This document shows positions 1 to 63,185 of a DNA stretch of 64,000 nucleotides, piece after piece. The stretch is from Eledone cirrhosa. Lineage: Eukaryota. The notes below the pieces were generated by a model. The model ran no database searches. It saw nothing but the letters and a program-made list of their open reading frames with translations, and was not told where the DNA came from. Position 1 is the first letter of the stretch, and every line of letters starts with the position of its first letter. A program made the translations under genes and the position numbers. The stretch lies in assembly GCA_964016885.1 (NCBI GenBank), contig OZ024744.1, positions 19,654,001-19,718,000 of the forward strand, in the 5' to 3' direction.

Positions 1-1460
1 GAGAAATGGAAAAAGAAGAGTGTTGCCATACATGGGAGTCGAACCGACATATTTGGTTATCCAAACCACTGTGCTTCCATTACACCAATGCATATCCCAT
101 CTCCTTCCATTCGAATTAGAAGCTACGAAGTTAGCAAGTGAATGATAAACAAGCAAATTATAAACGTAAACATGTAAGTATGTTTTTGAAACGGTGCACG
201 AGTTTGAAAGTAGAAATTAGAAATTATAAGCTCTCACCGGATTTTAGACTAAAGAAATGTATAGCTTAATAGTGGGGTTTATAACCCTCGGCGAAATGGA
301 AAAAGAAGAGTGTTGCCATACATGGGAGTCGAACCGACATATTTGGTTATCCAAACCACTGTGCTTCCATTACACCAATGCATATCCCATCTCCTTCCAT
401 TCGAATTAGAAGCTATGAACTTAGCAAGTGAATGATAAACGAGCAAATTATAAACGTAAACATGTAAGTATGTTTTTGAAACGGTGTGCTCGTTTGAAAC
501 TAGAAATTAGAAATTATAAGTTTTCACCGTATTTTAGACTAAATAAATTTATAGCTTGATAGTGGGGTTTATAACCCTCGGAGAAATGGAAAAAGATGAG
601 TGTTGCCATACATGGGAGTCGAAGCCACATATTTGGTTATCCAGACCACTGTGCTACAATTACACCAATACACATCCCTTCTCCTTCCATTCGAATTAGA
701 AGCTATGAACTTAGCAAGTGAATGATAAACAAGCAAATTATAAACGTAAACATGTAAGCATGTTTTTGAAACGGTGCACGAGTTTGAAATTAGAAATTAG
801 AAATTATAAGCTCTCACCGGATTTTAGACTAAAGTAATGTATAGCTTTATAGTGGGGTTTATAACCCTAAGAGAAATGGAATAAGATGCGTGTTGCCATA
901 CCTGGGAGTCGAACCCACATCTTTGGTTATCCAGACCACTGTGCTACCATTACTACGAATACACATCCCATCTCCTTCCATTCGAATTAGAAGCTACGAA
1001 GTTAGCAAGTGAATGATAAACAAGCAAATTATAAACGTAAACATGTAAGTATGTTTTTGAAACGGTGCACGAGTTTGAAAGTAGAAATTAGAAATTATAA
1101 GCTCTCACCGGATTTTAGACTAAAGAAATGTATAGCTTAATAGTGGGGTTTATAACCCTCGGAGAAATGGAAAAAGAAGAGTGTTGCCATACATGGGAGT
1201 CGAACCGACATATTTGGTTATCCAAACCACTGTGCTTCCATTACACCAATGCATATCCCATCTCCTTCCATTCGAATTAGAAGCTATGAACTTAGCAAGT
1301 GAATGATAAACGAGCAAATTATAAACGTAAACATGTAAGTATGTTTTTGAAACGGTGTGCTCGTTTGAAACTAGAAATTAGAAATTATAAGGTTTCACCG
1401 TATTTTAGACTAAATAAATTTATAGCTTGATAGTGGGGATTATAACCCTCGGAGAAATGG

Positions 1461-1465
1461 AAAAA
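1461..1465 (-). terminator. Putative Pol III oligo-T terminator (representative)
   Basis: TTTTT lies about 10 nt downstream of the tRNA-like 3' end. The other common monomer families have T4 (CGTTTTC) or T6 (ATTTTTTG) at the same place. Confidence 0.6.
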
Positions 1466-1485
1466 GATGAGTGTTGCCATACATG

Positions 1486-1496
1486 GGAGTCGAACC
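1486..1496 (-). promoter_or_regulatory. Pol III box B (representative; intact in many but not all monomers)
   Basis: GGTTCGACTCC matches GGTTCGANTCC, at tRNA-like spacing from box A. Confidence 0.85.
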
Positions 1497-1527
1497 CACA
1501 TCTTTGGTTATCCAGACCACTGTCCTA

Positions 1528-1538
1528 CCATTAGACCA
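1528..1538 (-). promoter_or_regulatory. Pol III type-2 internal promoter box A (representative; repeated in each monomer)
   Basis: TGGTCTAATGG here and TGGTGTAATGG in most copies fit the consensus TRGYNNARNGG. Confidence 0.75.
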
Positions 1539-4500
1539 ATACACATCCCATCTCCTTCCATTCGAATTAGAAGCTATGAACTTAGCAAGTGAATGATAAA
1601 GAAGCAAATTATAAACGTAAACATGTAAGTATGTTTTTGAAACGGTGCGCTCGTTTAAAATTAGAAATTACAAATTATAAGCTTTCACCGTATTTTAGAA
1701 TAAAGAAATTTATAGCTTGATAGTGGGGTTTATAACCCTCGGAGAAATGGAAAAAGATGAGTGTTGCCACACATGGGAGTCGAACCCACATATTTTGTTA
1801 TCCAGACCACTGTGCTACCATTACACCAATACACATCCCATCTCCTTCCATTCGAATTAGAAGCTATGAACTTAGCAAGTGAATGATAAACAAGCAAATT
1901 ATAAACGTAAACATGTAAGTATCTTTTTGAAATGGTGCGAGAGTTTGAAATTAGAAATTAGAAATTATAAGCTTTCACCGGATTTTAGACTAAAGAAATG
2001 TATAGCTTGATAGTGGGGTTTATAACCCTCGGAGAAATGGCAAAAAATGAGTGTTGCCATACATGGGAGTCGAAGCCACATATTTGGTTATCCAGACCAC
2101 TGTGCTACAATTACACCAATACACATCCCTTCTCCTTCCATTCGAATTAGAAGCTATGAACTTAGCAAGTGAATGATAAACAAGCAAATTATAAACGTAA
2201 ACATGTAAGCATGTTTTTGAAACGGTGCACGAGTTTGAAATTAGAAATTAGAAATGATAAGCTCTCACCGGATTTTAGACTAAAGTAATGTATAGCTTGA
2301 TAGTGGGGTTTATAACCCTAGGAGAAATGGAAAAAGATGCGTGTTGCCATACCTGGGAGTCGAAACCACATCTTTGGTTATCCAGACCACTGTGCTACCA
2401 TTAATACGAATACACATCCCATCTCCTTCCATTCGAATTAGAAGCTACGAAGTTAGCAAGTGAATGATAAACAAGCAAATTATAAACGTAAACATGTAAG
2501 TATGTTTTTGAAACGGTGCACGAGTTTGAAAGTAGAAATTAGAAATTATAAGCTCTCACCGGATTTTAGACTAAAGTAATGTATAGCTTGATAGTGGGGT
2601 TTATAACCCTAGGAGAAATGGATAAAGATGCGTGTTGCCATACCTGGGAGTCGAACCCACATCTTTGGTTATCCAGACCACTGTGCTACCATTACTACGA
2701 ATACACATCCCATCTCCTTCCATTCGAATTAGAAGCTACGAAGTTAGCAAGTGAATGATAAACAAGCAAATTATAAACATAAACATGTAAGTATGTTTTT
2801 GAAACGGTGCACGAGTTTGAAAGTAGAAATTAGAAATTATAAGCTCTCACCGGATTTTAGACTAAAGAAATGTATAGCTTAATAGTGGGGTTTATAACCC
2901 TCGGAGAAATGGAAAAAGAAGAGTGTTGCCATACATGGGAGTCGAACCGACATATTTGGTTATCCAAACCACTGTGCTTCCATTACACCAATGCATATCC
3001 CATCTCCTTCCATTCGAATTAGAAGCTATGAACTTAGCAAGTGAATGATAAACGAGCAAATTATAAACGTAAACATGTAAGTATGTTTTTGAAACGGTGT
3101 GCTCGTTTGAAACTAGAAATTAGAAATTATAAGGTTTCACCGTATTTTAGACTAAATAAATTTATAGCTTGATAGTGGGGTTTATAACCCTAGGAGAAAT
3201 GGAAAAAGATGAGTGTTGCCACACATGGGAGTCGAACCCACATATTTTGTTATCCAGACCACTGTGCTACCATTACACCAATACACATCCCATCTCCTTC
3301 CATTCGAATTAGAAGCTATGAACTTAGCAAGTGAATGATAAACAAGCAAATTATAAACGTAAACATGTAAGTATGTTTTTGAAACGGTGCGCGAGTTTGA
3401 AATTAGAAATAATAAGCTTTCACCGTATTTTACACTAAAGAAATTTATAGCTTGATAGTGGGGTTTATAAGCCTCGGAGAAATGGCAAAAAATGAGTGTT
3501 GCCATACATGGGAGTCGAAGCCACATATTTGGTTATCCAGACCACTGTACTACAATTACGCCAATACACATCCCTTCTCCTTCCATTCGAATTAGAAGCT
3601 ATGAACTTAGCAAGTGAATGATAAACAAGCAAATTATAAACGTAAACATGTAAGTATTTTTTTGAAACGGTGCGCGAGTTTGAAATTAGAAATTAAAAAT
3701 TATAAGCTTTCACCGTATTTTAGACTAAAGAAATTTATAGCTTGATAGTGGGGTTTATAACCCTCGGAGAAATGGCAAAAAATGAGTGTTGCCATACATG
3801 GGAGTCGAAGCCACATATTTGGTTATCCAGACCACTGTGCTACAATTACACCAATACACATCCCTTCTCCTTCCATTCGAATTAGAAGCTATGAACTTAG
3901 CAAGTGAATGATAAACAAGCAAATTATAAACGTAAACATGTAAGCATGTTTTTGAAACGGTGCACGAGTTTGAAATAAGAAATTAGAAATTATAAGCTCT
4001 CACCGGATTTTAGACTAAAGTAATGTATAGCTTGATAGTGGGGTTTATAACCCTAGCAGAAATGGAAAAAGATGCGTGTTGCCATACCTGGGAGTCGAAC
4101 CCACATCTTTGGTTATCCAGACCACTGTGCTACCATTACTACGAATACACATCCCATCTCCTTCCATTCGAATTAGAAGCTACGAAGTTAGCAAGTGAAT
4201 GATAAACAAGCAAATTATAAACGTAAACATGTAAGTATGTTTTTGAAACGGTGTGCTCGTTTGAAACTAGAAATTAGAAATTATAAGGTTTCACCGTATT
4301 TTAGACTAAATAAATTTATAGCTTGATAGTGGGGATTATAACCCTCGGAGAAATGGAAAAAGATGAGTGTTGCCATACATGGGAGTCGAACCCACATCTT
4401 TGGTTATCCAGACCACTGTCCTACCATTAGACCAATACACATCCCATCTCCTTCCATTCGAATTAGAAGCTATGAACTTAGCAAGTGAAAGATAAAGAAG

Positions 4501-7500
4501 CAAATTATAAACGTAAACATGTAAGTATGTTTTTGAAACGGTGCGCTCGTTTAAAATTAGAAATTAGAAATTATAAGCTTTCACCGGATTTTAGACTAAA
4601 GAAATGTATAGCTTGATAGTGGGGTTTATAACCCTAGGAGAAATGGAAAAAGATGAGTGTTGCCACACATGGGAGTCGAACCCACATATTTTGTTATCCA
4701 GACCACTGTGCTACCATTACACCAATACACATCCCATTTCCTTCCATTCGAATTAGAAGCTATGAACTTAGCAAGTGAATGATAAACAAGCAAATTATAA
4801 ACGTAAACATGTAAGTATTTTTTTGAAACGGTGCGCGAGTTTGAAATTAGAAATTAAAAATTATAAGCTTTCACCGTATTTTAGACTAAAGAAATTTATA
4901 GCTTGATAGTGGGGTTTATAACCCTCGGAGAAATGGCAAAAAATGAGTGTTGCCATACATGGGAGTCGAAGCCACATATTTGGTTATCCAGACCACTGTG
5001 CTACAATTACACCAATACACATCCCTTCTCCTTCCATTCGAATTAGAAGCTATGAACTTAGCAAGTGAATGATAAACAAGCAAATTATAAACGTAAACAT
5101 GTAAGCATGTTTTTGAAACGGTGCACGAGTTTGAAATTAGAAATTAGAAATTATAAGCTCTCACCGGATTTTAGACTAAAGTAATGTATAGCTTGATAGT
5201 GGGGTTTATAACCCTAGGAGAAATGGAAAAAGATGCGTGTTGCCATACCTGGGAGTCGAAACCACATCTTTGGTTATCCAGACCACTGTGCTACCATTAA
5301 TACGAATACACATCCCATCTCCTTCCATTCGAATTAGAAGCTACGAAGTTAGCAAGTGAATGATAAACAAGCAAATTATAAACGTAAACATGTAAGTATG
5401 TTTTTGAAACGGTGCACGAGTTTGAAAGTAGAAATTAGAAATTATAAGCTCTCACCGGATTTTAGACTAAAGTAATGTATAGCTTGATAGTGGGGTTTAT
5501 AACCCTAGGAGAAATGGAAAAAGATGCGTGTTGCCATACCTGGGAGTCGAACCCACATCTTTGGTTATCCAGACCACTGTGCTACCATTACTACGAATAC
5601 ACATCCCATCTCCTTCCATTCGAATTAGAAGCTACGAAGTTAGCAAGTGAATGATAAACAAGCAAATTATAAACGTAAACATGTAAGTATGTTTTTGAAA
5701 CGGTGCACGAGTTTGAAAGTAGAAATTAGAAATTATAAGCTCTCACCGGATTTTAGACTAAAGAAATGTATAGCTTAATAGTGGGGTTTATAACCCTCGG
5801 AGAAATGGAAAAAGAAGAGTGTTGCCATACATGGGAGTCGAACCGACATATTTGGTTATCCAAACCACTGTGCTTCCATTACACCAATGCATATCCCATC
5901 TCCTTCCATTCGAATTAGAAGCTATGAACTTAGCAAGTGAATGATAAACGAGCAAATTATAAACGTAAACATGTAAGTATGTTTTTGAAACGGTGTGCTG
6001 GCTTGAAACTAGAAATTAGAAATTATAAGGTTTCACCGTATTTTAGACTAAATAAATTTATAGCTTGATAGTGGGGTTTATAACCCTAGGAGAAATGGAA
6101 AAAGATGAGTGTTGCCACACATGGGAGTCGAACCCACATATTTTGTTATCCAGACCACTGTGCTACCATTACACCAATACACATCCCATCTCCTTCCATT
6201 CGAATTAGAAGCTATGAACTTAGCAAGTGAATGATAAACAAGCAAATTATAAACGTAAACATGTAAGTATGTTTTTGAAACGGTGCGCGAGTTTGAAATT
6301 ATAAATTAAAAATTATAAGCTTTCACCGTATTTTAGACGAAAGAAATTTATAGATTGATAGTGGGGTTTATAACCCTCGGAGAAATGGCAAAAAATGAGT
6401 GTTGCCATACATGGGAGTCGAATCCACATATTTGGTTATCCAGACCACTGTGCTACAATTACACCAATACACATCCCTTCTCCTTCCATTCGAATTAGAA
6501 GCTATGAACTTAGCAAGTGAATGATAAACAAGCAAATTATAAACGTAAACATGTAAGCATGTTTTTGAAACGGTGCACGAGTTTGAAATTAGAAATTAGA
6601 AATTATAAGCTCTCACCGGATTTTAGACTAAAGTAATGTATAGCTTGATAGTGGGGTTTATAACCCTAGGAGAAATAGAAAAAGATGCGTGTTGCCATAC
6701 CTGGGAGTCGAACCCACATCTTTGGTTATCCAGACCACTGTGCTACCATTACTACGAATACACATCCCATCTCCTTCCATTCGAATTAGAAGCTCCGAAG
6801 TTAGCAAGTGAATGATAAACAAGCAAATTATAAACGTAAACATGTAAGTATGTTTTTGAAACGGTGCACGAGTTTGAAAGTAGAAATTAGAAATTATAAG
6901 CTCTCACCGGATTTTAGACTAAAGAAATGTATAGCTTAATAGTGGGGTTTATAACCCTCGGAGAAAGCGAAAAAGAAGAGTGTTGCCATACATGGGAGTC
7001 GAACCGACATATTTGGTTATCCAAACCACTGTGCTTCCATTACACCAATGCATATCCCATCTCCTTCCATTCGAATTAGAAGCTATGAACTTAGCAAGTG
7101 AATGATAAACGAGCAAATTATAAACGTAAACATGTAAGTATGTTTTTGAAACGGTGTGCTCGTTTGAAACTAGAAATTAGAAATTATAAGGTTTCACCGT
7201 ATTTTAGACTAAATAAATTTATAGCTTGATAGTGGGGATTATAACCCTCGGAGAAATGGAAAAAGATGAGTGTTGCCATACATGGGAGTCGAACCCACAT
7301 CTTTGGTTATCCAGACCACTGTCCTACCATTAGACCAATACACATCCCATCTCCTTCCATTCGAATTAGAAGCTATGAACTTAGCAAGTGAATGATAAAC
7401 AAGCAAATTATAAACGTAAACATGTAAGTATGTTTTTGAAACGGTGCGCTCGTTTAAAATTAGAAATTACAAATTATAAGCTTTCACCGTATTTTAGAAT

Positions 7501-10500
7501 AAAGAAATTTATAGCTTGATAGTGGGGTTTATAACCCTCGGAGAAATGGAAAAAGATGAGTGTTGCCACACATGGGAGTCGAACCCACATATTTTGTTAT
7601 CCAGACCACTGTGCTACCATTACACCAATACACATCCCATCTCCTTCCATTCGAATTAGAAGCTATGAACTTAGCAAGTGAATGATAAACAAGCAAATTA
7701 TAAACGTAAACATGTAAGTATCTTTTTGAAATGGTGCGAGAGTTTGAAATTAGAAATTAGAAATTATAAGCTTTCACCGGATTTTAGACTAAAGAAATGT
7801 ATAGCTTGATAGTGGGGTTTATAACCCTCGGAGAAATGGCAAAAAATGAGTGTTGCCATACATGGGAGTCGAAGCCACATATTTGGTTATCCAGACCACT
7901 GTGCTACAATTACACCAATACACATCCCTTCTCCTTCCATTCGAATTAGAAGCTATGAACTTAGCAAGTGAATGATAAACAAGCAAATTATAAACGTAAA
8001 CATGTAAGCATGTTTTTGAAACGGTGCACGAGTTTGAAATTAGAAATTAGAAATGATAAGCTCTCACCGGATTTTAGACTAAAGTAATGTATAGCTTGAT
8101 AGTGGGGTTTATAACCCTAGGAGAAATGGAAAAAGATGCGTGTTGCCATACCTGGGAGTCGAAACCACATCTTTGGTTATCCAGACCACTGTGCTACCAT
8201 TAATACGAATACACATCCCATCTCTTTCCATTCGAATTAGAAGCTACGAAGTTAGCAAGTGAATGATAAACAAGCAAATTATAAACGTAAACATGTAAGT
8301 ATGTTTTTGAAACGGTGCACGAGTTTGAAAGTAGAAATTAGAAATTATAAGCTCTCACCGGATTTTAGACTAAAGTAATGTATAGCTTGATAGTGGTGTT
8401 TATAACCCTCGGAGAAATGGAAAAAGAAGAGTGTTGCCATACATGGGAGTTGAACCGACATATTTGGTTATCCAAACCACTGTGCTTCCATTACACCAAT
8501 GCATATCCCATCTCCTTCCATTCGAATTAGAAGCTATGAACTTAGCAAGTGAATGATAAACGAGCAAATTATAAACGTAAACATGTAACTATGTTTTTGA
8601 AACGGTGTGCTCGTTTGAAACTAGAAATTAGAAATTATAAGGTTTCACCGTATTTTAGACTAAATAAATTTATAGCTTGATAGTGGGGTTTATAACCCTA
8701 GGAGAAATGGAAAAAGATGAGTGTTGCCACACATGGGAGTCGAACCCACATATTTTGTTATCCAGACCACTGTGCTACCATTACACCAATACACATCCCA
8801 TCTCCTTCCATTCGAATTAGAAGCTATGAACTTAGCAAGTGAATGATAAACAAGCAAATTATAAACGTAAACATGTAAGTATGTTTTTGAAACGGTGCGC
8901 GAGTTTGAAATTAGAAATAATAAGCTTTCACCGTATTTTACACTAAAGAAATTTATAGCTTGATAGTGGGGTTTATAAGCCTCGGAGAAATGGCAAAAAA
9001 TGAGTGTTGCCATACATGGGAGTCGAAGCCACATATTTGGTTATCCAGACCACTGTGCTACAATTACACCAATACACATCCCTTCTCCTTCCATTCGAAT
9101 TAGAAGCTATGAACTTAGCAAGTGAATGATAAACAAGCAAATTATAAACGTAAACATGTAAGCATGTTTTTGAAACGGTGCACGAGTTTGAAATAAGAAA
9201 TTAGAAATTATAAGCTCTCACCGGATTTTAGACTAAAGTAATGTATAGCTTGATAGTGGGGTTTATAACCCTAGGAGAAATGGAAAAAGATGCGTGTTGC
9301 CATACCTGGGAGTCGAACCCACATCTTTGGTTATCCAGACCACTGTGCTACCATTACTACGAATACACATCCCATCTCCTTCCATTCGAATTAGAAGCTA
9401 CGAAGTTAGCAAGTGAATGATAAACAAGCAAATTATAAACGTAAACATGTAAGTATGTTTTTGAAACGGTGCACGAGTTTGAAAGTAGAAATTAGAAATT
9501 ATAAGCTCTCACCGGATTTTAGACTAAAGAAATGTATAGCTTAATAGTGGGGTTTATAACCCTCGGAGAAATGGAAAAAGAAGAGTGTTGCCATACATGG
9601 GAGTCGAACCGACATATTTGGTTATCCAAACCACTGTGCTTCCATTACACCAATGCATATCCCATCTCCTTCCATTCGAATTAGAAGCTATGAACTTAGC
9701 AAGTGAATGATAAACGAGCAAATTATAAACGTAAACATGTAAGTATGTTTTTGAAACGGTGTGCTCGTTTGAAACTAGAAATTAGAAATTATAAGGTTTC
9801 ACCGTATTTTAGACTAAATAAATTTATAGCTTGATAGTGGGGATTATAACCCTCGGAGAAATGGAAAAAGATGAGTGTTGCCATACATGGGAGTCGAACC
9901 CACATCTTTGGTTATCCAGACCACTGTCCTACCATTAGACCAATACACATCCCATCTCCTTCCATTCGAATTAGAAGCTATGAACTTAGCAAGTGAATGA
10001 TAAAGAAGCAAATTATAAACGTAAACATGTATGTATTTTTTTGAAACGGTGCGCGAGTTTGAAATTAGAAATAATAAGCTTTCACCGTATTTTACACTAA
10101 AGAAATTTATAGCTTGATAGTGGGGTTTATAACCCTCGGAAAAATGGCAAAAAATGAGTGTTGCCATACATGGGAGTCGAAGCCACATATTTGGTTATCG
10201 AGACCACTGTGCTACAATTACACCAATACACATCCCTTCTCCTTCCATTCGAATTAGAAGCTATGAACTTAGCAAGTGAATGATAAACAAGCAAATTATA
10301 AACGTAAACATGTAAGTATGTTTTTGAAACGGTGCGCGAGTTTGAAAGTAGAAATTAGAAATTATAAGGTTTCACCTTATTTTAGAATAAAGAAATTTAT
10401 AGCTTGATAGTGGGGTTTATAACCCTCGGAGAAATGGAAAAAGATGAGTGTTGCCATACATGGGAGTCGAACCCACATCTTTGGTTATCCAGACCACTGT

Positions 10501-10899
10501 CCTACCATTAGACCAATACACATCCCATCTCCTTCCATTCGAATTAGAAGCTATGAACTTAGCAAGTGAATGATAAACAAGCAAATTATAAACGTAAACA
10601 TGTAAGTATGTTTTTGAAACGGTGCGCGTGTTTGAAATTAGAAGTCAGAAATGATAAGCTTTCAATGAATTTTAGACTAAAGAAATGTATAGCTTGATAG
10701 TGGGGTTTATAACACTAGGAGAAATGGAAAAAGATGAGTGTTGCCATACCTGGGAGTCGAACCCACATCTTTGGTTATCCAGACCACTGTGCTACCATTA
10801 CACGAATACACATCCCATCTCCTTCCATTCGAATTAGAAGCTATGAACTTAGCAAGTGAATGATAAACAAGCAAATTATAAACGTAAACATGTAAGTAT

Positions 10900-28200: not shown

Positions 28201-28399
28201 GCAAATTATAAACGTAAACATGTAAGTATGTTTTTGAAACGGTGCGCGAGTTTGAAATTAGAAATTAGAAATTATAAGCTTTCACCGGATTTTAGAATAA
28301 AAAAATTTATAGCTTGATAGTGGGGTTCATAACCCTCGGAGAAATGGAAAAAGATGAGTGTTGCCGCACATGGGCGTCGAACCCACATAATTTGTTATC

Positions 28400-49799: not shown

Positions 49800-52700
49800 A
49801 CCACTGTGCTACAATTACACCAATACACATCCCTTCTCCTTCCATTCGAATTAGAAGCTATGAACTTAGCAAGTGAATGATAAACAAGCAAATTATAAAC
49901 GTAAACATGTAAGTATGTTTTTGAAACGGTGCACGAGTTTGAAATTAGAAATTAGAAATTATAAGCTCTCACCGGATTTTAGACTAAAGAAATGTATAGC
50001 TTGATAGTTGGGTTTATAACCCTAGGAGAAATGGAAAAAGATGCGTGTTGCCATACCTGGGAGTCGAACCCACATCTTTGGTTATGCAGACCACTGTGCT
50101 ACCATTACACGAATACACATCCCATCTCCTTCCATTCGAATTAGAAGCTACGAAGTTAGCAAGTGAATGATAAACAAGCAAATTATAAACGTAAACATGT
50201 AAGTATGTTTTTGAAACGGTGTGCTCGTTTGAAACTAGAAATTAGAAATTATAAGGTTTCACCGTATTTTAGACTAAATAAATTCATAGCTTGATAGTGG
50301 GGATTATAACCCTGGGAGAAATGGAAAAAGATGAGTGTTGCCACACATGGGAGTCGAACCCACATATTTTGTTATCCAGACCACTGTGCTACCATTACAC
50401 CAATACACATCCCATCTCCTTCCATTCGAATTAGAAGCTATGAACTTAGCAAGTGAATGATAAACAAGCAAATTATAAACGTAAACATGTAAGTATGTTT
50501 TTGAAACGGTGCGCGAGTTTGAAATTAGAAATTAGAAATTATAAGCTTTCACCGGATTTTAGAATAAAGAAATTTATAGCTTGATAATGGGGTTCATAAC
50601 CCTCGGAGAAATCGAAAAAGATGAGTGTTGCCACACATGGGAGTCGAACCCACATATTTTGTTATCCAGACCACTGTGCTACCATTACACCAATACACAT
50701 CCCATCTCCTTCCATTCGAATTAGAAGCTATGAACTTAGCAAGTGAATGATAAACAAGCAAATTATAAACGTAAACATGTAAGTATGTTTTTGAAACGGT
50801 GCGCGAGTTTGAAATTAGAAATTAGATATTATACGCTTTCACCTGATTTTAGACTAAAGAAATGTATAGCTTGATAGTGGGGTTTATAACCCTAGGAGAA
50901 ATGGAAAAATATGAGTGTTGCCATACATGGGTGTCGAACCCACATATTTGGTTATCCAGACCACTGTGCTACCATTACACCAATACACATCCCATCTCCT
51001 TCCATTCGAATTAGAAGCTATGAACTTAGCTAGTGAATGATAAACGAGCAAATTATAAACGTAAACATGCAAGTATGTTTTTGAAACGGTGCACGAGTTT
51101 GAAATTAGAAATTAGAAATTATAAGCTTTCACCGTATTTTAGACTAAGGAAATTTATAGCTTGATAGTGGGGATTATAATTCTACGAGAAATTGAAAAAG
51201 ATGAGGGTTGCCATACATGGGAGTCGAAACGACATATTTGGTTATCCAGACCACTGTGCTACCATTACACCAATACACATCCCATCTCCTTCCATTCGAA
51301 TTAGAAGCTACGAACTTAGCTAGTGAATGATAAACGAGCAAATTATAAACGTAAACATGTAAGTATGTTTTTGAAACGGTGTGCTCGTTTGAAACTAGAA
51401 ATTAGAAATTATAAGGTTTCAGGGTATTTTAGACTAAATAAATTTATAGCTTGATAGTGGGGATTATAACCCTCGGAGAAATGGAAAAAGATGAGTGTTG
51501 CCATACATGGGAGTCGAACCCACATCTTTGGTTATCCAGACCACTGTGCTACCATTACACCAATACACATCCCATCTCCTTCCATTCGAATTAGAAGCTA
51601 TGAACTTAGCAAGTGAATGATAAACGAGCAAATTATAAACGTAAACATGTAAGTATTTTTTTGAAACGGTGCGCGAGTTTGAAATTAGAAATTATACGCT
51701 TTCACCCTATTTCACACTAAAGAAATTTCTAGCCTGATAGTGGGGTTTATATCCCTCGGAGAAATGGAAAACGATGAGTGTTGCCATACATGGGAGTCGA
51801 AACCACACGTTTGGTTATCCAGACCACTGTTCTACCATTACATCAATACACATCCCATTCCCTTCCATTCGAAATATAAGCTACGAACTTAGCAAGTGAA
51901 TGATAAACAAGCAAATTATAAACGTAAACATGTAAGTATGTTTTTGAAACGGTGCGCGAGTTTGAAATTAGAAATTAGAAATTATAAGCTTTCACCGTAT
52001 TTTAGAATAAAGAAATTTATAGCTTGATAGTGGGGTTTATAACACTCGGAGAAATGGAAAACGATGAGTGTTGCCATACATGGGAGTCGAAGCCACATAT
52101 TTGGTTATCCTGACCACTGTGCTACCATTACACCAATACACATCCCTTTTCCTTCCATTCGAATAGAAGCTATGAACTTAGCAAGTGAACGATAAACAAG
52201 CAAATTATAAACGTAAACATGTAAGTATGTTTTTGAAACGGTGCGCGAGTTTGAAATTAGAAATTAGAAATTATAAGCTTTCACCGTATATTAGAATAAA
52301 GAAATTTGTAGCTTGATAGTGGGGTTTATAACCCTCGGAGAAATGGAAAAAGATGAGTGTTGTCATACATGGGAGTCGAACCCACATCTTTGGTTATCCA
52401 GTCCACTGTCCTACCATTAGACCAATACACATCCCATCTTCTTCCATTCGAATTAGAAGCTATGAACTTAGCAAGTGAATGATAAACAAGCAAATTATAA
52501 ACGTAAACATGTAAGTTACTTTTTGAAACGGTGCGTGAGTTTGAAATTAGAAATTAGAAATTATAAGCTTTCACAGGATTTTAGAATAAAGAAATGTATA
52601 GCTTGATACAGGGGTTTATAACCCTAGGAGAAATGGAAAAAGGTGAGTGTTGCCACACATGGGAGTCGAACCCACATATTTTGTTATCCAGACTACAGAG

Positions 52701-55700
52701 CTACCATTACTCCAATACACATCCCATCTCCTTCCATTCGAAATAGAAGCTATGATCTTAGCAAGTGAATGATAAAGAAGCAAATTATAAACGTAAACAT
52801 GTAAGTATGTTTTTGAAACGGTGCGCTCGTTTGAAATTAGAAATTAGAAATTATAAACTTTCACCGTATTTTAGACTAAAGAAATTTATAGCTTGATAGT
52901 GTGGATTATAACCCTCGGAGAAATGGAAAAAGGTGAGTGTTGCCATACCTGGGAGTCGAACCCACATCTTTGGTTATCCAGACCACTGTGCTACCATTAG
53001 ACCAATACACATCCCATCTCCATCCATTCGAATTAGAAGCTATGAACTTAGCAAGTGAATGATAAACAAGCAAATTATAAACGTAAACATGTAAGTATGT
53101 TTTTGAAACGGTGCGCGAGTTTGAAAGTAGAAATTAGATATTATACGCTTTCACCTGATTTTAGACTAAAGAAATGTATAGCTTGATAGTGGGGTTTATA
53201 ACCCTAGGAGAAATGGAAAAATATGAGTGTTGCCATACATGGGAGTCGAACCCACATATTTGGTTATCCAGACCACTGTGCTACCATGACACGAATACAC
53301 ATCCCATCTCCTTGCATTCGAATTAGAAGCTACGAAGTTAGCAAGTGAATGATAAACAAGCAAATTATAAACGTAAACATGTAAGTATGTTTTTGAAACG
53401 GTGCGCGAGTTTGAAATTAGAAATTAGAAATTATAAGCTTTCACCGTATTTTAGAAGAAAGAAATGTATATCTTGATAGTGGGGTTTATAACCCTCGGAG
53501 AAATGGAAAAAGATGTGTGTTGCCATACCTGGAAGTCGAACCCACATCTTTGGTTATCCAGTCCACTGTGCTACCATTACACCAATACACATCCCTTCTC
53601 CTTCCATTCGAATTAGAAGCTATGAACTTAGCAAGTGAATGATAAACAAGCAAATTATAAACGTAAACATGTAAGTATGTTTTTGAAACGGTGCGCGAGT
53701 TTGAAATTAGAAGTTAGAAATTATAAGCTTTCACCGGATTTTAGACTAAAGAAATTTATAGCTTGATAGTGGGGTTCATAACCCTCGGAAAAATGGAAAA
53801 CGATGAGTGTTGCCACACATGGGAGTCGAACCTACATATTTGGTTATCCAGACCACTGTGCTACCATTACACCAATACACATCCCTTCTCCTTCCATTCG
53901 AATTAGAAGCTATGAAGTTAGTAAGTGAATGATAAACAAGCAAATTATAAACGTAAACATGTAAAAATGTTATTGAAACGGTGCGCGAGTTTGAAATTAG
54001 AAATTAGAAATTATAAGCTTTCACCGTATTTTAGACTAAAGAAATTTCTAGCTTGATAGTGGGGATTATAACCTTCGGAGAAATGGAAAAAAATGAGTGT
54101 TGCCATACATGGGAGTCGAACCCACCTATTTCGTTATCCAGACCATTGTGCTACCATTACACGAATACACATCCCATCTCCTTGCATTCGAATTAGAAGC
54201 TACGAAGTTAGCAAGTGAATGATAAACAAGCAAATTATAAACGTAAACATGTATGTTTTTGAAACGGTGCGCGAGTTTGAAATTAGAAATTAGAAATTAT
54301 AAGCTTTCACCGTATTTTAGAATAAAGAAATTTATAGCTTGATAGTGGGGTTTATAACACTCGGAGAAATGGAAAACGATGAGTGTTGCCATACATGGGA
54401 GTCGAAGCCACATATTTGGTTATCCAGACCACTGTGCTACCATTACACCAATACACATCCCTTTTCCTTCCATTCGAATAGAAGCTATGAACTTAGCAAG
54501 TGAATGATAAACAAGCAAATTATAAACGTAAACATGTAAGTATGTTTTTGAAACGGTGCGCGAGTTTGAAATTAGAAATTAGAAATTATAAGCTTTCACC
54601 GTATATTAGAATAAAGAAATTTGTAGCTTGATAGTGGGGTTTATAACCCTCGGAGAAATGGAAAAAGATGAGTGTTGCCATACATGGGAGTCGAACCCAC
54701 ATCTTTGGTTATCCAGTCCACTGTCCTACCATTAGACCAATACACATCCCATCTTCTTCCATTCGAATTAGAAGCTATGAACTTAGCAAGTGAATGATAA
54801 ACAAGCAAATTATAAACGTAAACATGTAAGTTACTTTTTAAAACGGTGCGTGAGTTTGAAATTAGAAATTAGAAATTATAAGCTTTCACAGGATTTTAGA
54901 ATAAAGAAATGTATAGCTTGATAATGGGGATTATAACCCTCGGAGAAATGGAAAAAGATGAGTGTTGCCATACATGGGAGTCGAACCCACACGTTTGGTT
55001 ATCCAGACCACTGAGCTACCATTACATCAATACACATCCCATTTCCTTCCATTCGAAATAGAAGCTACGAACTTAGCAAGTGAATGATAAACAAGCAAAT
55101 TATATACTTATACATGTAAGTATATTTTTGAAACGGTGCGTGAGTTTGAAATAAGAAATTAGAAATTATAAGCTCTCACCGTATTTGAGACTAAAGAAAT
55201 TTATAGCCTGATAATGGGGATTATAACCCTCGGAGAAATGGAAAAAGATGAGTGTTGCCATACATGGGAGTCGAACCCACATCTTTGGTTATCCAGACCA
55301 ATGTCCTACCATTACATCAATACACATCCCATTTCCTTCCATTCGAAATAGAAGCTACGAAGTTAGCAAGTGAATAATAAACAAGCAAATTATAAACGTA
55401 AACATGTAAGTATTTTTTTGAAACGGTGCACGATTTTGAAATTAAAAATGAGAAATTATAAGCTTTCACCGTATTTTAAACTAAAGAAATTTATAGCCTG
55501 ATTTATATCCCTCGGAAAATGGGAAACGATCAGTGTTGCCATACATGTGAGTCGCACACACACCTTTGGTTATCCAGACCACTGTGCTACCTATTACATC
55601 AATACACATCCCTTCTCCTTCCATTCGAATTAGAAGCTATGAACTTAGCAAGTGAATGATAAACAAGCAAATTATAAACGTAAACATGTAAGTATGTTTT

Positions 55701-58700
55701 TGAAACGGTGCACGAGTTTGAAATTAGAAATTAGAAATTATAAGCTCTCACCGGATTTTAGACTAAAGAAATGTATAGCTTGATAGTGGGGTTTATAACC
55801 CTAGGAGAAATGGAAAAAGATGCGTGTTGCCATACCTGGGAGTCGAACCCACATCTTTGGTTATGCAGACCACTGTGCTACCATTACACGAATACACATC
55901 CCATCTCCTTCCATTCGAATTAGAAGCTACGAAGTTAGCAAGTGAATGATAAACAAGCAAATTATAAACGTAAACATGTAAGTATGTTTTTGAAACGGTG
56001 TGCTCGTTTGAAACTAGAAATTAGAAATTATAAGGTTTCACCGTATTTTAGACTAAATAAATTCATAGCTTGATAGTGGGGATTATAACCCTCGGAGAAA
56101 TGGAAAAAGATGAGTGTTGCCACACATGGGAGTCGAACCCACATATTTTGTTATCCAGACCACTGTGCTACCATTACACCAATACACATCCCATCTCCTT
56201 CCATTCGAATTAGAAGCTATGAACTTAGCAAGTGAATGATAAACAAGCAAATTATAAACGTAAACATGTAAGTATGTTTTTGAAACGGTGCGCGAGTTTG
56301 AAATTAGAAATTAGAAATTATAAGCTTTCACCGGATTTTAGAATAAAGAAATTTATAGCTTGATAATGGGGTTCATAACCCTCGGAGAAATCGAAAAAGA
56401 TGAGTGTTGCCACACATGGGAGTCGAACCCACATATTTTGTTATCCAGACCACTGTGCTACCATTACACCAATACACATCCCATCTCCTTCCATTCGAAT
56501 TAGAAGCTATGAACTTAGCAAGTGAATGATAAACAAGCAAATTATAAACGTAAACATGTAAGTATGTTTTTGAAACGGTGCGCGAGTTTGAAATTAGAAA
56601 TTAGATATTATACGCTTTCACCTGATTTTAGACTAAAGAAATGTATAGCTTGATAGTGGGGTTTATAACCCTAGGAGAAATGGAAAAATATGAGTGTTGC
56701 CATACATGGGTGTCGAACCCACATATTTGGTTATCCAGACCACTGTGCTACCATTACACCAATACACATCCCATCTCCTTCCATTCGAATTAGAAGCTAT
56801 GAACTTAGCTAGTGAATGATAAACGAGCAAATTATAAACGTAAACATGCAAGTATGTTTTTGAAACGGTGCACGAGTTTGAAATTAGAAATTAGAAATTA
56901 TAAGCTCTCACCGGATTTTAGACTAAAGAAATGTATAGCTTGATTGTGGGGTTTATAACCCGAGTGGAAATGGAAAAAGATGCGTGTTGCCATACCTGGG
57001 AGTCGAACCCACATCTTTGGTTATCCAGACCACTGGGCTACCATTACACGAATACACATCCCATCTCCTTCCATTCGAATTAGAAGCTACGAAGTTAGCA
57101 AGTGAATGATACACAAGCAAATTATAAACGTAAACATGTAAGTATGTTTTTGAAACGGTGCACGAGTTTGAAAGTAGAAATTAGAAATTATAAGCTCTCA
57201 CCGGATTTTAGACTAAAGAAATGTATAGCTTAATAGTGGGGTTTATAACCCTCGGAGAAATGGAAAAAGAAGAGTGTTGCCATACATGGGAGTCGAACCT
57301 ACATATTTGGTTATCCAAACCACTGTCCTTCCATTACAGCAATGCACATCCCATCTCCTTCCATTCGAATTAGAAGCTATGAACTTAGCAAGTGAATGAT
57401 AAACGAGCAAATTATAAACGTAAACATGTAAGTATGTTTTTGAAACGGTGCGCTCGTTTGAAATTAGAAATTAGAAATTATAAGCTTTCACCGTATTTTA
57501 GACTAAGGAAATTTATAGCTTGATAGTGGGGATTATAATTCTCCGAGAAATTGAAAAAGATGAGGGTTGCCATACATGGGAGTCGAAACGACATATTTGG
57601 TTATCCAGACCACTGTGCTACCATTACACCAATACACATCCCATCTCCTTCCATTCGAATTAGAAGCTACGAACTTAGCTAGTGAATGATAAACGAGCAA
57701 ATTATAAACGTAAACATGTAAGTATGTTTTTGAAACGGTGTGCTCGTTTGAAACTAGAAATTAGAAATTATAAGGTTTCAGGGTATTTTAGACTAAATAA
57801 ATTTATAGCTTGATAGTGGGGATTATAACCCTCGGAGAAATGGAAAAAGATGAGTGTTGCCATACATGGGAGTCGAACCCACATCTTTGGTTATCCAGAC
57901 CACTGTGCTACCATTACACCAATACACATCCCATCTCCTTCCATTCGAATTAGAAGCTATGAACTTAGCAAGTGAATGATAAACGAGCAAATTATAAACG
58001 TAAACATGTAAGTATTTTTTTGAAACGGTGCGCGAGTTTGAAATTAGAAATTATACGCTTTCACCCTATTTCACACTAAAGAAATTTCTAGCCTGATAGT
58101 GGGGTTTATATCCCTCGGAGAAATGGAAAACGATGAGTGTTGCCATACATGGGAGTCGAAACCACACGTTTGGTTATCCAGACCACTGTTCTACCATTAC
58201 ATCAATACACATCCCATTCCCTTCCATTCGAAATATAAGCTACGAACTTAGCAAGTGAATGATAAACAAGCAAATTATAAACGTAAACATGTAAGTATGT
58301 TTTTGAAACGGTGCGCGAGTTTGAAATTAGAAATTAGAAATTATAAGCTTTCACCGTATTTTAGAATAAAGAAATTTATAGCTTGATAGTGGGGTTTATA
58401 ACACTCGGAGAAATGGAAAACGATGAGTGTTGCCATACATGGGAGTCGAAGCCACATATTTGGTTATCCTGACCACTGTGCTACCATTACACCAATACAC
58501 ATCCCTTTTCCTTCCATTCGAATAGAAGCTATGAACTTAGCAAGTGAACGATAAACAAGCAAATTATAAACGTAAACATGTAAGTATGTTTTTGAAACGG
58601 TGCGCGAGTTTGAAATTAGAAATTAGAAATTATAAGCTTTCACAGGATTTTAGAATAAAGAAATGTATAGCTTGATACAGGGGTTTATAACCCTAGGAGA

Positions 58701-61390
58701 AATGGAAAAAGGTGAGTGTTGCCACACATGGGAGTCGAACCCACATATTTGGTTATCCAGACTACAGAGCTACCATTACTCCAATACACATCCCATCTCC
58801 TTCCATTCGAAATAGAAGCTATGAACTAAGCAAGTGAATGATAAAGAAGCAAATTATAAACGTAAACATGTAAGTATGTTTTTGAAACGGTGCGCTCGTT
58901 TGAAATTAGAAATTAGAAATTATAAACTTTCACCGTATTTTAGACTAAAGAAATTTATAGCTTGATAGTGTGGATTATAACCCTCGGAGAAATGGAAAAA
59001 GGTGAGTGTTGCCATACCTGGGAGTCGAACCCACATCTTTGGTTATCCAGACCACTGTGCTACCATTAGACCAATACACATCCCATCTCCATCCATTCGA
59101 ATTAGAAGCTATGAACTTAGCAAGTGAATGATAAACAAGCAAATTATAAACGTAAACATGTAAGTATGTTTTTGAAACGGTGCGCGAGTTTGAAAGTAGA
59201 AATTAGATATTATACGCTTTCACCTGATTTTAGACTAAAGAAATGTATAGCTTGATAGTGGGGTTTATAACCCTAGGAGAAATGGAAAAATATGAGTGTT
59301 GCCATACATGGGAGTCGAACCCACATATTTGGTTATCCAGACCACTGTGCTACCATTACACGAATACACATCCCATCTCCTTGCATTCGAATTAGAAGCT
59401 ACGAAGTTAGCAAGTGAATGATAAACAAGCAAATTATAAACGTAAACATGTAAGTATGTTTTTGAAACGGTGCGCGAGTTTGAAATTAGAAATTAGAAAT
59501 TATAAGCTTTCACCGTATTTTAGAAGAAAGAAATGTATATCTTGATAGTGGGGTTTATAACCCTCGGAGAAATGGAAAAAGATGTGTGTTGCCATACCTG
59601 GAAGTCGAACCCACATCTTTGGTTATCCAGTCCACTGTGCTACCATTACACCAATACACATCCCTTCTCCTTCCATTCGAATTAGAAGCTATGAACTTAG
59701 CAAGTGAATGATAAACAAGCAAATTATAAACGTAAACATGTAAGTATGTTTTTGAAACGGTGCGCGAGTTTGAAATTAGAAGTTAGAAATTATAAGCTTT
59801 CACCGGATTTTAGACTAAAGAAATTTATAGCTTGATAGTGGGGTTCATAACCCTCGGAAAAATGGAAAACGATGAGTGTTGCCACACATGGGAGTCGAAC
59901 CTACATATTTGGTTATCCAGACCACTGTGCTACCATTACACCAATACACATCCCTTCTCCTTCCATTCGAATTAGAAGCTATGAAGTTAGTAAGTGAATG
60001 ATAAACAAGCAAATTATAAACGTAAACATGTAAAAATGTTATTGAAACGGTGCGCGAGTTTGAAATTAGAAATTAGAAATTATAAGCTTTCACCGTATTT
60101 TAGACTAAAGAAATTTCTAGCTTGATAGTGGGGATTATAACCTTCGGAGAAATGGAAAAAAATGAGTGTTGCCATACATGGGAGTCGAACCCACCTATTT
60201 CGTTATCCAGACCACTGTGCTACCATTACACGAATACACATCCCATCTCCTTGCATTCGAATTAGAAGCTACGAAGTTAGCAAGTGAATGATAAACAAGC
60301 AAATTATAAACGTAAACATGTATGTTTTTGAAACGGTGCGCGAGTTTGAAATTAGAAATTAGAAATTATAAGCTTTCACCGTATTTTAGAATAAAGAAAT
60401 TTATAGCTTGATAGTGGGGTTTATAACCCTCGGAGAAATGGAAAAAGATGAGTGTTGCCATACATGGGAGTCGAACCCACATCTTTGGTTATCCAGTCCA
60501 CTGTCCTACCATTAGACCAATACACATCCCATCTTCTTCCATTCGAATTAGAAGCTATGAACTTAGCAAGTGAATGATAAACAAGCAAATTATAAACGTA
60601 AACATGTAAGTTACTTTTTAAAACGGTGCGTGAGTTTGAAATTAGAAATTAGAAATTATAAGCTTTCACAGGATTTTAGAATAAAGAAATGTATAGCTTG
60701 ATAATGGGGATTATAACCCTCGGAGAAATGGAAAAAGATGAGTGTTGCCATACATGGGAGTCGAACCCACACGTTTGGTTATCCAGACCACTGAGCTACC
60801 ATTACATCAATACACATCCCATTTCCTTCCATTCGAAATAGAAGCTACGAACTTAGCAAGTGAATGATAAACAAGCAAATTATATACTTATACATGTAAG
60901 TATATTTTTGAAACGGTGCGTGAGTTTGAAATAAGAAATTAGAAATTATAAGCTCTCACCGTATTTGAGACTAAAGAAATTTATAGCCTGATAATGGGGA
61001 TTATAACCCTCGGAGAAATGGAAAAAGATGAGTGTTGCCATACATGGGAGTCGAACCCACATCTTTGGTTATCCAGACCAATGTCCTACCATTACATCAA
61101 TACACATCCCATTTCCTTCCATTCGAAATAGAAGCTACGAAGTTAGCAAGTGAATAATAAACAAGCAAATTATAAACGTAAACATGTAAGTATTTTTTTG
61201 AAACGGTGCACGATTTTGAAATTAAAAATGAGAAATTATAAGCTTTCACCGTATTTTAAACTAAAGAAATTTATAGCCTGATTTATATCCCTCGGAAAAT
61301 GGAAAACGATCAGTGTTGCCATACATGTGAGTCGCACACACACCTTTGGTTATCCAGACCACTGTGCTACCTATTACATCAATACACATT
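49800..61390. repeat. ~5.78-kb duplicated block of more diverged monomers near the array edge
   Basis: ORFs at 50884/56663 (offset 5,779) and the degenerate monomer gcctgatttatatccctcggaaaat at 55501/61281 (offset 5,780). Internal markers are offset by ~6,360, implying whole-monomer indels between the copies. Confidence 0.85.
51499..51569 (-). pseudogene. Representative consensus-like tRNA-like copy (D stem GTGT/GCAC, tRNA-Gln-like D arm)
   Basis: TGGTGTAATGGTAGCAC closely resembles the eukaryotic tRNA-Gln D arm (TGGTGTAATGGTTAGCAC). Box B GGTTCGACTCC is intact. Confidence 0.75.
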
Positions 61391-62544
61391 CCATTTCCTT
61401 CCATTCGAATTAGAAGCTGTGAAATTAGCAAGTGAATGATAAACAAACATATTATAAACGTAAACATGTAAGTATGTTTTTGAAACGGTGCACGATTTTG
61501 AAATTAGAAATGAGAAATTATAAGCTTTCACCGTATTTTAGACTAAAGAAATGTATAGCTTGATAGTGGGGTTTATAACCCTAGGAGAAATGGAAAAAGA
61601 TGAGTGTTGCCATACCTGGGAGTCGAACCCACATCTTTGGTTATCCAGACCACTGTGCTACCATTACACGAATACACATCCCATCTCCTTCCATTCGAAT
61701 TAGAAGCTACGAAGTTAGCAAGTGAATAATAAACAAGCAAATTATAAACGTAAACATGTAAGTATTTTTTTGAAACCATGCGCCAGTTTGAAATTGGAAA
61801 TTAAAAATGATAAGCTTTCACCATATTTTAGACTAAAGAAATTTATAGGTTGATAGTGGTGTTTATAACTCTCGGAGAAATGGAAAAAAATGAGTGTTGC
61901 CATACATGGGAGTCGAACCCACATACTTGGTTATCCAGACCACTGTGCTACCATTACACCAATACACATCCCATCTCCTTCCATTCGAATTAGAAGCTAT
62001 GAACTTAGCAAGTGAATGATAAACAAGCAAATTATAAACGTAAACATGTAAGTATGTCTTTGAAACGGTGCGCGAGTTTGAAATTAGAAATTAGAAATTA
62101 TAAGCCTTCACCGTATTTTACACTAAAGAAGTTTCTAGCCTGATAGTGGGGTTTATATCCCTCGGAGAAATTGAAAACGATGAGTGTTGCCATACATGTG
62201 AGTCGCACCCACACCTTTGGTTATCCAGACCACTGTGCTACCTATTACATCAATACACATTCCATTTCCTTCCATTCGAATTAGAAGCTGTGAAATTAGC
62301 AAGTGAATGATAAACAAACATATTATAAACGTAAACATGTAAGTATGTTTTTGAAACGGTGCACGATTTTGAAATTAGAAAATAGAAATTATAAGCTTTC
62401 ACCGTATTTTAGACTAAAGAAATTTATAGCTTGATAGTGGGGATTATAACCCTTAGGAGAAATGTAAAAAGATGAGTGCTGCCATACATGGGAGTCGAAC
62501 CCACATCTTTGTTTATCCAGACCACTGTCCTACCATTACACCAC

Positions 62545-62702
<158 letters not shown>

Positions 62703-62764
62703 TGAAACAAAATGAAAACGAAATTTCATTTCTCACTCTTAGTATGGCACTTACTTAAATGTAA

Positions 62765-62880
62765 GTATGCATGTATACGTACATACATATGTGTATACAG
62801 ACGTACAGTAGCATGCACATATATATATATATATACATATATATATACATATGCATACAGGTACACATACATATATGCAC
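62765..62880. repeat. Degenerate (TA)/(TACA) low-complexity tract
   Basis: catatatatatatatatacatatatatatacatatgcatac and similar sequence. Confidence 0.8.
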
Positions 62881-63117: not shown

Positions 63118-63185
63118 ATTTGCATATTGAGTGAGTTAAATCGGTCAGGCATACCGAAAACGATAAATTTAACTCACTCAATATG

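Follow-up and report, generated by a model that had tools for sequence, protein, structure and literature searches.

The window analysed here, a stretch of 64,000 nucleotides from Eledone cirrhosa (contig OZ024744.1, positions 19,654,001 to 19,718,000, forward strand), is dominated by a single tandem array, which TRF places at positions 1-62,543 with a period of 290, 216.3 copies and 92% matches. A first-pass annotation of this DNA had described a satellite of 290-bp units whose minus strand carries box A, box B, the D, anticodon and T arms of a tRNA and an oligo-T run. This description was confirmed, the oligo-T run being a T5. Its estimate of an approximately 215-fold amplification was wrong, since the array continues for ~213 kb beyond the left edge of the window, and the actual amplification is ~950-fold. 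The complete array (C28:19,440,624-19,716,546) covers 276 kb and contains 951 full units, arranged head-to-tail in a single orientation; a weak higher-order periodicity is seen at 20 and 35 units. The distinct variants among the 951 units, the absence of N and a mean neighbour identity of 94% rule out an assembly artefact. The features of the window are as follows.

1..62543, minus strand: window share of the array (right 62.5 kb, 215 full units)
1571..1860, minus strand: representative unit of subfamily A, with leader, tRNA-like head, trailer with T5, and AT-rich spacer
1836..1852, minus strand: leader, predicted by folding to form a 17-bp helix with the trailer, extending the acceptor stem
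1765..1835, minus strand: tRNA-like head, from Rfam tRNA and ARAGORN matches and host tRNA comparison
1818..1828, minus strand: box A, from sequence
1776..1786, minus strand: box B / T-loop; a cluster of 5' truncation points in dispersed copies lies there and just 3' (+52..+70 = window 1765-1783)
1746..1764, minus strand: trailer including T5 (1751-1755); almost every dispersed insertion runs across it
1592..1666, minus strand: spacer segment with both preferred 3' joining sites to (TA)n in dispersed copies (~+170-179 and +240, subfamily A)
62545..62699, no strand: (TA)n run bordering the array on the right; the array begins here at ~tRNA +6
62700..63190, minus strand: one unit of a separate ~470-bp repeat on the same (TA)n run as the array's right end, serving as an internal control

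The tRNA similarity predicted for the minus strand was borne out by covariance model, the Rfam tRNA model (RF00005) reaching its gathering score at 55 places in the window (best 37.5 bits, E 2.7e-4), and ARAGORN makes 31 Ser-GGA calls there. The array units show the layout of type-2 Pol III genes: box A and box B are spaced as in a tRNA, and a run of at least four T follows downstream. The further claim that each monomer is a complete Pol III unit stands as regards the presence of boxes, arms and T5, but the subfamily A head lacks two outer acceptor pairs and has T at position 37 of the anticodon loop. The three patterns (box A, box B and T>=4) occur jointly in 77 of the 215 window units and 585 of the 951 array units, while the D, anticodon and T stems are all paired in 36/215 and 335/951, respectively. 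The box B variants GCTTCGA and GTTTCGA, which had been flagged as a caveat, do exist (26 and 15 among the ten commonest types in the 215 units). A functional tRNA gene was rejected on account of the lost acceptor pairs, the T37 in place of a purine and a best score below the 60-75 bits of the top host tRNA-like matches. Among the three host tRNA types compared, the nearest is Arg-CCG (48/75, with a C-type copy), followed by Gln (42/73) and Thr (34/75). The head and leader region folds with z values of -2.6 to -2.9, and 91% of cells in the leader-trailer helix are paired; a circular fold of the whole unit is no better than shuffles (z -0.3 to -0.8), and a covariation test on the unit structure gave no signal above shuffles.

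A search of the host genome for dispersed copies, as the first-pass annotation had proposed, found the 290-bp unit scattered in (TA)n runs in at least three subfamilies (A, B and C). This short non-coding sequence occurs singly, as dimers and in tandem arrays. A 30-mer from the head has 1300 exact genome matches, 332 of them within the array, and spacer patterns give 1941 matches for subfamily B and 1117 for subfamily A, of which the array accounts for 212. Between subfamilies, conservation of the head exceeds that of the spacer only modestly in substitutions (0.08-0.18 versus 0.14-0.21 per site), while indel events number ~1 versus ~6 (16 units, one misclassified). Dispersed copies score as tRNA up to 55.6 bits, and 18 of 49 subfamily B arms start at -10..+7 around the tRNA 5' end, both supporting a tRNA origin of the family and a probable role of its head as Pol III promoter. 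The numbers of units form a size series, from insertions of 2-3 units, through a subfamily C array at C1 (6.9 kb, ~26 units, with (TA)n and a short inverted arm), to the 951-unit array. The latter has a private haplotype, with alleles of its own at +66, +118 and +123: all 679 genome occurrences of its diagnostic 22-mer lie inside it, which rules out the array as the master source of the dispersed copies and, because the 22-mer is found at this one locus alone, makes a general centromeric satellite unlikely. Contigs of three other organisms yielded 6, 10 and 2 low-depth pieces, numbers too small to judge conservation across species, one run (X1) possibly being the assembly's own sample.

Tail-out foldbacks make up 35 of 50 unselected dispersed elements, the other 15 being single-armed; head-out foldbacks number 0/62. 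The outer 3' ends adjoin (TA)n in 73 of 85 cases, against a background of 10.6%, and 94 of 108 arms end 3' at two spacer sites per subfamily. Both arms of a foldback overlap and share these 3' end sites, yet their outer ends often differ, and the inner ends are truncated at variable points. At least one T5 run is crossed by 101 of the 108 arms, and at least two by 16. The spacer-anchored arms are frequently truncated 5' at the T-arm, 27 of 60 starting at +52..+70 and 20 at +59..+63, with a truncation hazard ~8x as high as in the zones adjoining on the 3' side (binomial p 1.5e-11, the arms being not fully independent). This accumulation implies a folded RNA template, as expected if the reverse transcriptase stalled on folded or modified tRNA. 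A local palindrome and AT microhomology could explain part of the peak. Since the insertions sit in (TA)n, target-site duplications are unreadable. The two arms of a foldback are no more alike than either is to the best other copy (12 of 48), which leaves snap-back and two-template models unseparated.

Long inverted arms in a TA context might also point to foldback or MITE-type DNA transposons, or to Helitron cargo, with an internal tandem repeat giving rise to the satellite, and the left end of the array, which is without (TA)n, adjoins a Helitron-like fragment (phmmer E 3.8e-4 to Helraiser). Such an origin is nevertheless very improbable: there is no fixed terminus, the arms of one element often end differently or are single, the inner ends break off at varying points, most often at an RNA structure, and Helitron-like ends were noted in 0/62 dispersed elements by informal inspection. 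MITE and foldback DNA transposons in the strict sense were rejected, as fixed terminal inverted repeats are missing. A classical SINE was also rejected, given the two 3' sites per subfamily and the tandem and inverted units without a fixed tail. It is rather unlikely, too, that the same retroposon, with the same array origin, represents an unusual SINE mobilised via twin priming by a microsatellite-targeting non-LTR element of the R4/Dong or Tx1/L1 type. In its favour, elements other than Penelope-like elements (PLEs) also show 5' truncation, (TA)n targets and inversions, AP-endonuclease/RT ORFs lie near the array (L052), and PLE tail homology was not found in the seven PLE 3' UTRs compared. 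The arms, however, overlap, share 3' end sites and have no fixed 3' tail, and their tandem and inverted structure fits the description of PLEs in the available text of PMC8557442 as well as the controls from this genome, PLEs and the hammerhead repeat.

Neptune-type PLEs are present in the genome: it contains 10,596 GIY-YIG candidates, and ORFs that combine RT with a C-terminal GIY-YIG occur, most with a Cys linker. Named PLE homologues are mostly bivalve, at 47-60%. Such ORFs have (TA)5 within 700 nt downstream in 18 of 20 cases and an inverted 3' copy in 4/20; in one PLE family, 30 of 30 copies have their end at (TA)n. Adjacent inverted pieces accompany 6/20 truncated control-PLE copies, versus the 35/50 tail-out foldbacks of the 290-bp family, a difference that weighs against a PLE mechanism. 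In the part of PMC8557442 available, PLEs (Neptune, Naiad, Hydra, and non-autonomous Chlamys such as MRC1) are described as showing 5' truncation, partial tandems and an inverted 5'-truncated copy; for Naiad and Hydra, a preference for (TA)n is given. The traits of non-autonomous PLEs, namely 5' truncation, tandem and inverted copies and a microsatellite target, here (TA)n, are all present in the dispersed 290-bp copies, which differ from the PLEs described there in lacking an ORF, in using several 3' ends where PLEs have one, and in their tRNA-derived head. The same foldbacks and tandem arrays are formed by the hammerhead-bearing 470-bp repeat. Within the window, its unit includes a core resembling a hammerhead at 62,989-63,051 (Rfam HH9 18.5 bits, E 0.044, under the gathering score of 52) and, at 63,167-63,190, a short arm in inverted orientation. 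The hammerhead CTGANGA core is absent from the array and three dispersed loci, with one stray match in L071, and none of the 143 Rfam matches listed at E<=5 for six loci is to a ribozyme family; a non-LTR retrozyme with a type I hammerhead in each unit was accordingly rejected. Comparison of the 290-bp unit with the 3' UTRs of the seven PLE families sampled gave no significant homology (the best of 21 tests, a 16/18 match, has p 0.007), and the PLE partner is thus inferred from the anatomy of the insertions.

The preferred reading, to which a probability of about 0.62 is assigned, is that the 290-bp unit is a tRNA-derived non-autonomous retroelement copied by Neptune-type PLE reverse transcriptases, and that the array is one insertion which expanded locally to ~950 units and is drifting. 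Because the same unit is scattered in (TA)n runs as foldback insertions, the array is likely a dispersed-type insertion expanded in place; its right junction, at (TA)n and ~tRNA +6, resembles the 5' junction of a dispersed insertion. Pol III would start just upstream of the tRNA head and read through T5 into at least one following unit. The PLE endonuclease would cut a (TA)n target, and the reverse transcriptase would prime at the TA-like spacer sites and often stall at the T-arm, folded or m1A58-modified. Either attachment to (TA)n or fold-back may then resolve the intermediate, producing the tail-out inverted arms. Unequal exchange could afterwards enlarge multi-unit insertions to arrays such as the 26 units at C1 and the 951 studied here.

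Within the array, the spacer is no more variable than the boxes and stems: derived alleles at 1% or more number 56 per 71 tRNA sites, 17 per 22 box sites and 100 per 175 spacer sites. Four common variants break stems, with anticodon-stem and T-stem breakers reaching 212/951 and 317/951 units, and the leader and trailer have no site with a variant at 5% or more (0/35). A compensatory D-stem change, from G12-C23 to C12-G23, occurs in 311/951 units together with 10 single-change intermediates; the C1 array has it one further time and the dispersed copies not at all, a pattern not expected under pure drift. The earlier suggestion of a selected high-copy small-RNA or TFIIIC locus is not supported by these data, since the unit belongs to a dispersed mobile family whose mobilised RNA runs through T5, and since the array combines boxes and stems at least as variable as its spacer with a haplotype found in no dispersed copy. 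Co-option of the array, like Xenopus OAX, either to encode a ~100-nt RNA in a Pol III gene cluster or to serve as a chromatin domain bound by TFIIIC is considered unlikely. It is kept alive by the D-stem change shared by two independent arrays, and agrees with the 585 units that fit the Pol III patterns, the uniform leader and trailer and the folding of the head (z ~-2.6). The variability of boxes and stems, the frequent stem breakers and the 335 units with all three arms intact speak against it, and DNA hairpin template switching could yield the double change. With respect to a functional small-RNA locus, the array is probably an ordinary satellite, and it looks like an evolutionary dead end.

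tRNA-derived satellites are already known (OAX, PolIII/TAN), and the array, a long head-to-tail series of units each with a tRNA-like region, has the layout of this class. The accessible text of PMC10702118 covers the amphibian repeats Xenopus OAX/satellite 1, newt PolIII/TAN (~360 nt), Rana/polIII (~250 nt) and Hy/polIII, some reported as transcribed, and states that no matching SINE was identified for them. They share with the array a tandem unit of 200-400 bp or more, a tRNA-like stretch and Pol III boxes, whereas the 290-bp family, unlike the repeats as described there, has an identified dispersed source and intermediates (2-3, 26 and 951 units). In squamates, as the same text describes, satellites were likewise born from dispersed tRNA-derived retroposons, but by duplication of part of a LINE-dependent SINE, while here the whole unit is already tandem in its mobile form. 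Non-LTR (animal) retrozymes, which are non-autonomous PLE partners according to the available part of bioRxiv 10.64898/2026.07.22.740005, similarly occur as short non-coding monomers, dimers and tandems amplified locally into satellites; the 290-bp unit has a tRNA-like head instead of a hammerhead core, and no pLTR sequence link was found. Schistosoma Sm-alpha, in the portion of PMC6765202 available, has SINE-like tandem units with a Pol III promoter and multimeric transcripts that are reverse transcribed, single copies being often promoter-less; its hammerhead, which cuts the multimers, has no counterpart in the 290-bp unit. TRIMp3 elements (Helenus, Ajax, Cassandra) also carry a small-RNA-derived Pol III promoter in a non-autonomous retroelement able to form tandem arrays, yet depend, in the accessible text of PMC10886601, on LTRs, PBS/PPT, 5-bp TSDs and LTR machinery; the 290-bp family has no LTR-internal-LTR layout, and a Helenus-type TRIMp3 was rejected as its units abut directly without an internal segment.

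A more tentative proposal, possible though doubtful, is that the unit represents a ribozyme-less retrozyme, a class of PLE parasites in which a tRNA mimic takes the place of the hammerhead, acting both as Pol III promoter and as recruiter of host tRNA enzymes (m1A58 methylation, possibly RNase P/Z), with the T-arm truncations as their footprint. Such a class could supply the dispersed origin so far missing for tRNA-derived Pol III satellites, and RNA-structure selection may act on the arrays, given the D-stem pair changed compensatorily in two of them. A literature search found no ribozyme-less, tRNA-headed PLE parasite feeding tRNA-derived satellites. SINEs are defined as parasites of LINEs. 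The short PLE parasites compared here, so far as the accessible literature describes them, have hammerheads or PLE-like 3' ends, and a tRNA-headed element with PLE-type insertions would, if the preferred reading is true, add a Pol III-driven partner for PLEs. It would also document how a dispersed retroposon can become a tRNA satellite, a path that the available text of PMC10702118 regards as unproven for the amphibian repeats. The PLE insertion mechanism is called still undefined in the part of PMC8557442 available, and the thousands of insertions of the 290-bp family would record where a PLE reverse transcriptase primes, stalls and folds back.

Positions 1-62,543 of the window form a single array with a period of 290 bp (216.3 copies by TRF), in which the minus strand of each unit carries box A, box B, tRNA-spaced arms and a T5 run, as the first-pass annotation had described and as the sequence, TRF, Rfam and ARAGORN bear out. 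The extent of the array at this place was likewise correct, but its figure of about 215-fold amplification was too low: with the neighbouring stretches included, the array spans 19,440,624-19,716,546 of contig C28 (the window being G000:C28:19,654,001-19,718,000 in a genome of 3.0 Gb) and comprises 951 full units in a single orientation. The low-scoring minus-strand tRNA matches expected from a covariance model were found, with the Rfam tRNA model above threshold at 55 places in the window (top score 37.5 bits), and ARAGORN made 31 Ser-GGA calls. The head of the unit is a pseudo-tRNA, and of the three host tRNAs set against it Arg-CCG is nearest (48/75), with Gln second (42/73). The caveat that several monomer families carry box B or stem-disrupting changes also held: judged by our own patterns, box A, box B and at least four T are retained in 77 of the 215 units in the window and in 585 of the array's 951, and the D, anticodon and T stems are all kept in 36/215 and 335/951, respectively.

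The 290-bp unit is a dispersed mobile family. Copies sought in the host genome, as had been proposed, were indeed present: an exact head 30-mer has 1300 matches, 332 of them inside the array, and with spacer patterns subfamily B gives 1941 matches and subfamily A, that of the array, 1117, of which 212 lie inside the array. Sixty loci were taken from the first 100 listed head-30-mer matches, all on contig C1; 12 were chosen for a paired look and one tandem array (L071) was left out, leaving 47 as an unselected set. In this set, 35 of 50 elements are tail-out foldbacks, with both tRNA-strand 3' ends outward, and 15 are single arms; the head-out arrangement occurs in none of 62 elements at the C1 loci among the matches listed. 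A (TA)n tract adjoins 73/85 outer 3' ends and 9/15 outer 5' ends, compared to 10.6% of positions drawn at random from these loci. Of 108 arms, 94 have their 3' end at one of the two AT-rich sites that each subfamily has in its spacer (our own count, to about +/-5 nt). At least one T5 is crossed by 101/108 arms, and two or more by 16/108; the copied template thus ran through the terminator. Several more unrelated short palindromic elements with (TA)n on their flanks lie beside loci L058-L077; foldback insertions from many small families seem to be plentiful in this genome. In a subfamily-C variant (L251, L253, L254, L256), all T-stem pairs are Watson-Crick and the loop sequence differs; this variant is nearer to host Arg-CCG.

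Signs of an RNA template come from the arm starts, which were read in 60 arms (30 B, 30 A; a few represent two anchors in one arm) found by spacer patterns in order to avoid anchoring on the head. Of the 60 arms, 27 start within +52..+70, and 20 of these at +59..+63, where the T-arm has its 3' foot; the start hazard at the T-arm is 0.032 per nt, whereas the zones on its 3' side have about 0.004 (p 1.5e-11 assuming independence). Reverse transcriptases halt at an m1A58 modification or at a stable T-arm; some sharpening of the peak could come from a local palindrome and AT microhomology. A second group (18/49 B arms) starts at -10..+7, the tRNA 5' end, around which a Pol III start is expected; in the unbiased set, just 2 of 11 arms reaching this zone end there. 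A 17-bp leader-trailer helix prolonging the acceptor stem can form according to folding predictions (z -2.6 to -2.9; opposite strand -1.2, -2.7 and -1.3). In the helix 92% of cells are paired, with AU/GU changes between subfamilies, and covariation is not above shuffles. Between subfamilies the head shows about 1 indel event versus 6 in the spacer, with similar or lower substitution rates.

Four features bear on the probable driver and on the origin of the array:

Window 62,700-63,190: 470-bp unit with hammerhead-like core (Rfam HH9, E 0.044, below threshold)
L012, L013, L056, L057 (C28 about 19,362,600 to at least 19,383,000), L153, L257, L285: further loci of the 470-bp repeat
L029:5999-6622: Helitron Rep/Hel-like fragment adjoining the array's left end
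G000:C1:131,458,913-131,465,827 (L071, L281, L282): older subfamily-C array, 6.9 kb, about 26 units

The 470-bp repeat, which served as a control, forms tail-out foldbacks at (TA)n as well as long arrays, its core is conserved and also present in tandem copies, and it is probably a non-LTR retrozyme family. About 60 kb to the left of the tRNA array, it forms a tandem array ~20 kb long. Hammerhead tandem repeats are described, in bioRxiv 10.64898/2026.07.22.740005, as non-autonomous derivatives of Penelope-like elements (PLEs). Core-motif and Rfam checks of the array and sampled dispersed loci showed no hammerhead core in the tRNA unit.

A first-look search gave 10,596 GIY-YIG candidates in the genome. 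At PLE loci with RT and GIY-YIG, (TA)5 lies within 700 nt of the stop in 18/20 and an inverted 3' copy occurs in 4/20. The 3' UTR of one PLE family has 949 genome matches; among the 100 listed, 9 pairs lying no more than 10 kb apart are tail-out and none is head-out, and 30/30 loci of this family end at (TA)n. An adjacent inverted piece, present in 6/20 control-PLE loci with the 5' end in view, is rarer than in the tRNA element, and tail homology between the unit and PLE 3' UTRs was not significant (best p 0.007 of 21 tests).

The right end of the array begins about tRNA +6 within (TA)n, resembling a 5' junction. On the left, the array stops at the trailer, where it meets the Helitron-like fragment, so that the original 3' junction is gone. 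Just beyond this fragment, two GIY-YIG PLE remnants lie as a tail-out pair (L029:1650-3345). The C1 array is flanked by (TA)n on either side and bears a short inverted arm; together with the insertions of 2-3 units common among dispersed loci, it supplies intermediates. A 38-bp minisatellite fills 11/11 3-kb samples (L015-L025; C28 18.80-19.32 Mb) over at least 500 kb nearby, and the region may therefore be heterochromatic.

Three nearly fixed sites (+66, +118, +123) set the array apart from 69 dispersed A rows, and a 22-mer spanning two of these sites has 679 genome matches, all 679 inside the array, which thus has no detectable dispersed offspring. The first-pass annotation had proposed a high-copy Pol III small-RNA locus or a TFIIIC-binding chromatin domain, a reading that now appears unlikely. 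Within the array, the tRNA part varies at least as much as the spacer does (0.051 versus 0.040), alleles at 1% or more number 56 per 71 tRNA, 17 per 22 box, 100 per 175 spacer and 18 per 35 leader-plus-trailer sites, and four common variants disrupt stems. What speaks against pure drift is the compensatory D-stem change G12-C23 to C12-G23, found in 311/951 units with 10 intermediates and few linked changes. Outside the big array, its 17-mer recurs once, in the C1 array, which also holds G12-G23 intermediates, and the change is absent from 70 dispersed heads. These two events hint, and no more, at something other than pure drift; hairpin template switching in DNA could also produce such double changes.

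Other tRNA-related sequences occur in this genome. Copies of one dispersed family (L237, L239-L247), whose tRNA-like head scores high, share flanks on several contigs and vary in anticodon (GGC, AGC, GAC, GGT, GTC); the family looks like a young tRNA-derived SINE. Directly 3' of its own tRNA head, a SINE-like element has 14 nucleotides (L250, about 1480-1500) that match the subfamily-B leader exactly, which may be by chance. Genes for tRNA-Thr, alternating with degenerate copies, form tandem clusters (L236, L238; C1 243.65-243.68 Mb), as do tRNA-Gln genes (C1 168.21-168.28 Mb).

In the open literature, tRNA-derived satellites (OAX, PolIII/TAN, Rana/polIII, Hy/polIII) and SINE-derived satellites (PMC10702118), Schistosoma Pol III hammerhead repeats (PMC6765202), TRIMp3 (PMC10886601) and retrozymes (bioRxiv 10.64898/2026.07.22.740005) are already known. 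A tRNA-headed, ribozyme-less element with PLE-type insertions was not found in the portions covered of the open full-text literature, including PMC8557442, the bioRxiv preprint, PMC10886601, PMC13282606, PMC4233971, PMC6765202, PMC10702118 and PMC4209133; the family could already stand in repeat consensus libraries such as those of Repbase and Dfam. Better supported than a functional array, at a probability of roughly 0.6, is the view that a non-autonomous retroelement with a tRNA head and (TA)n targets, probably driven by PLEs, gave rise to this satellite through one of its insertions.
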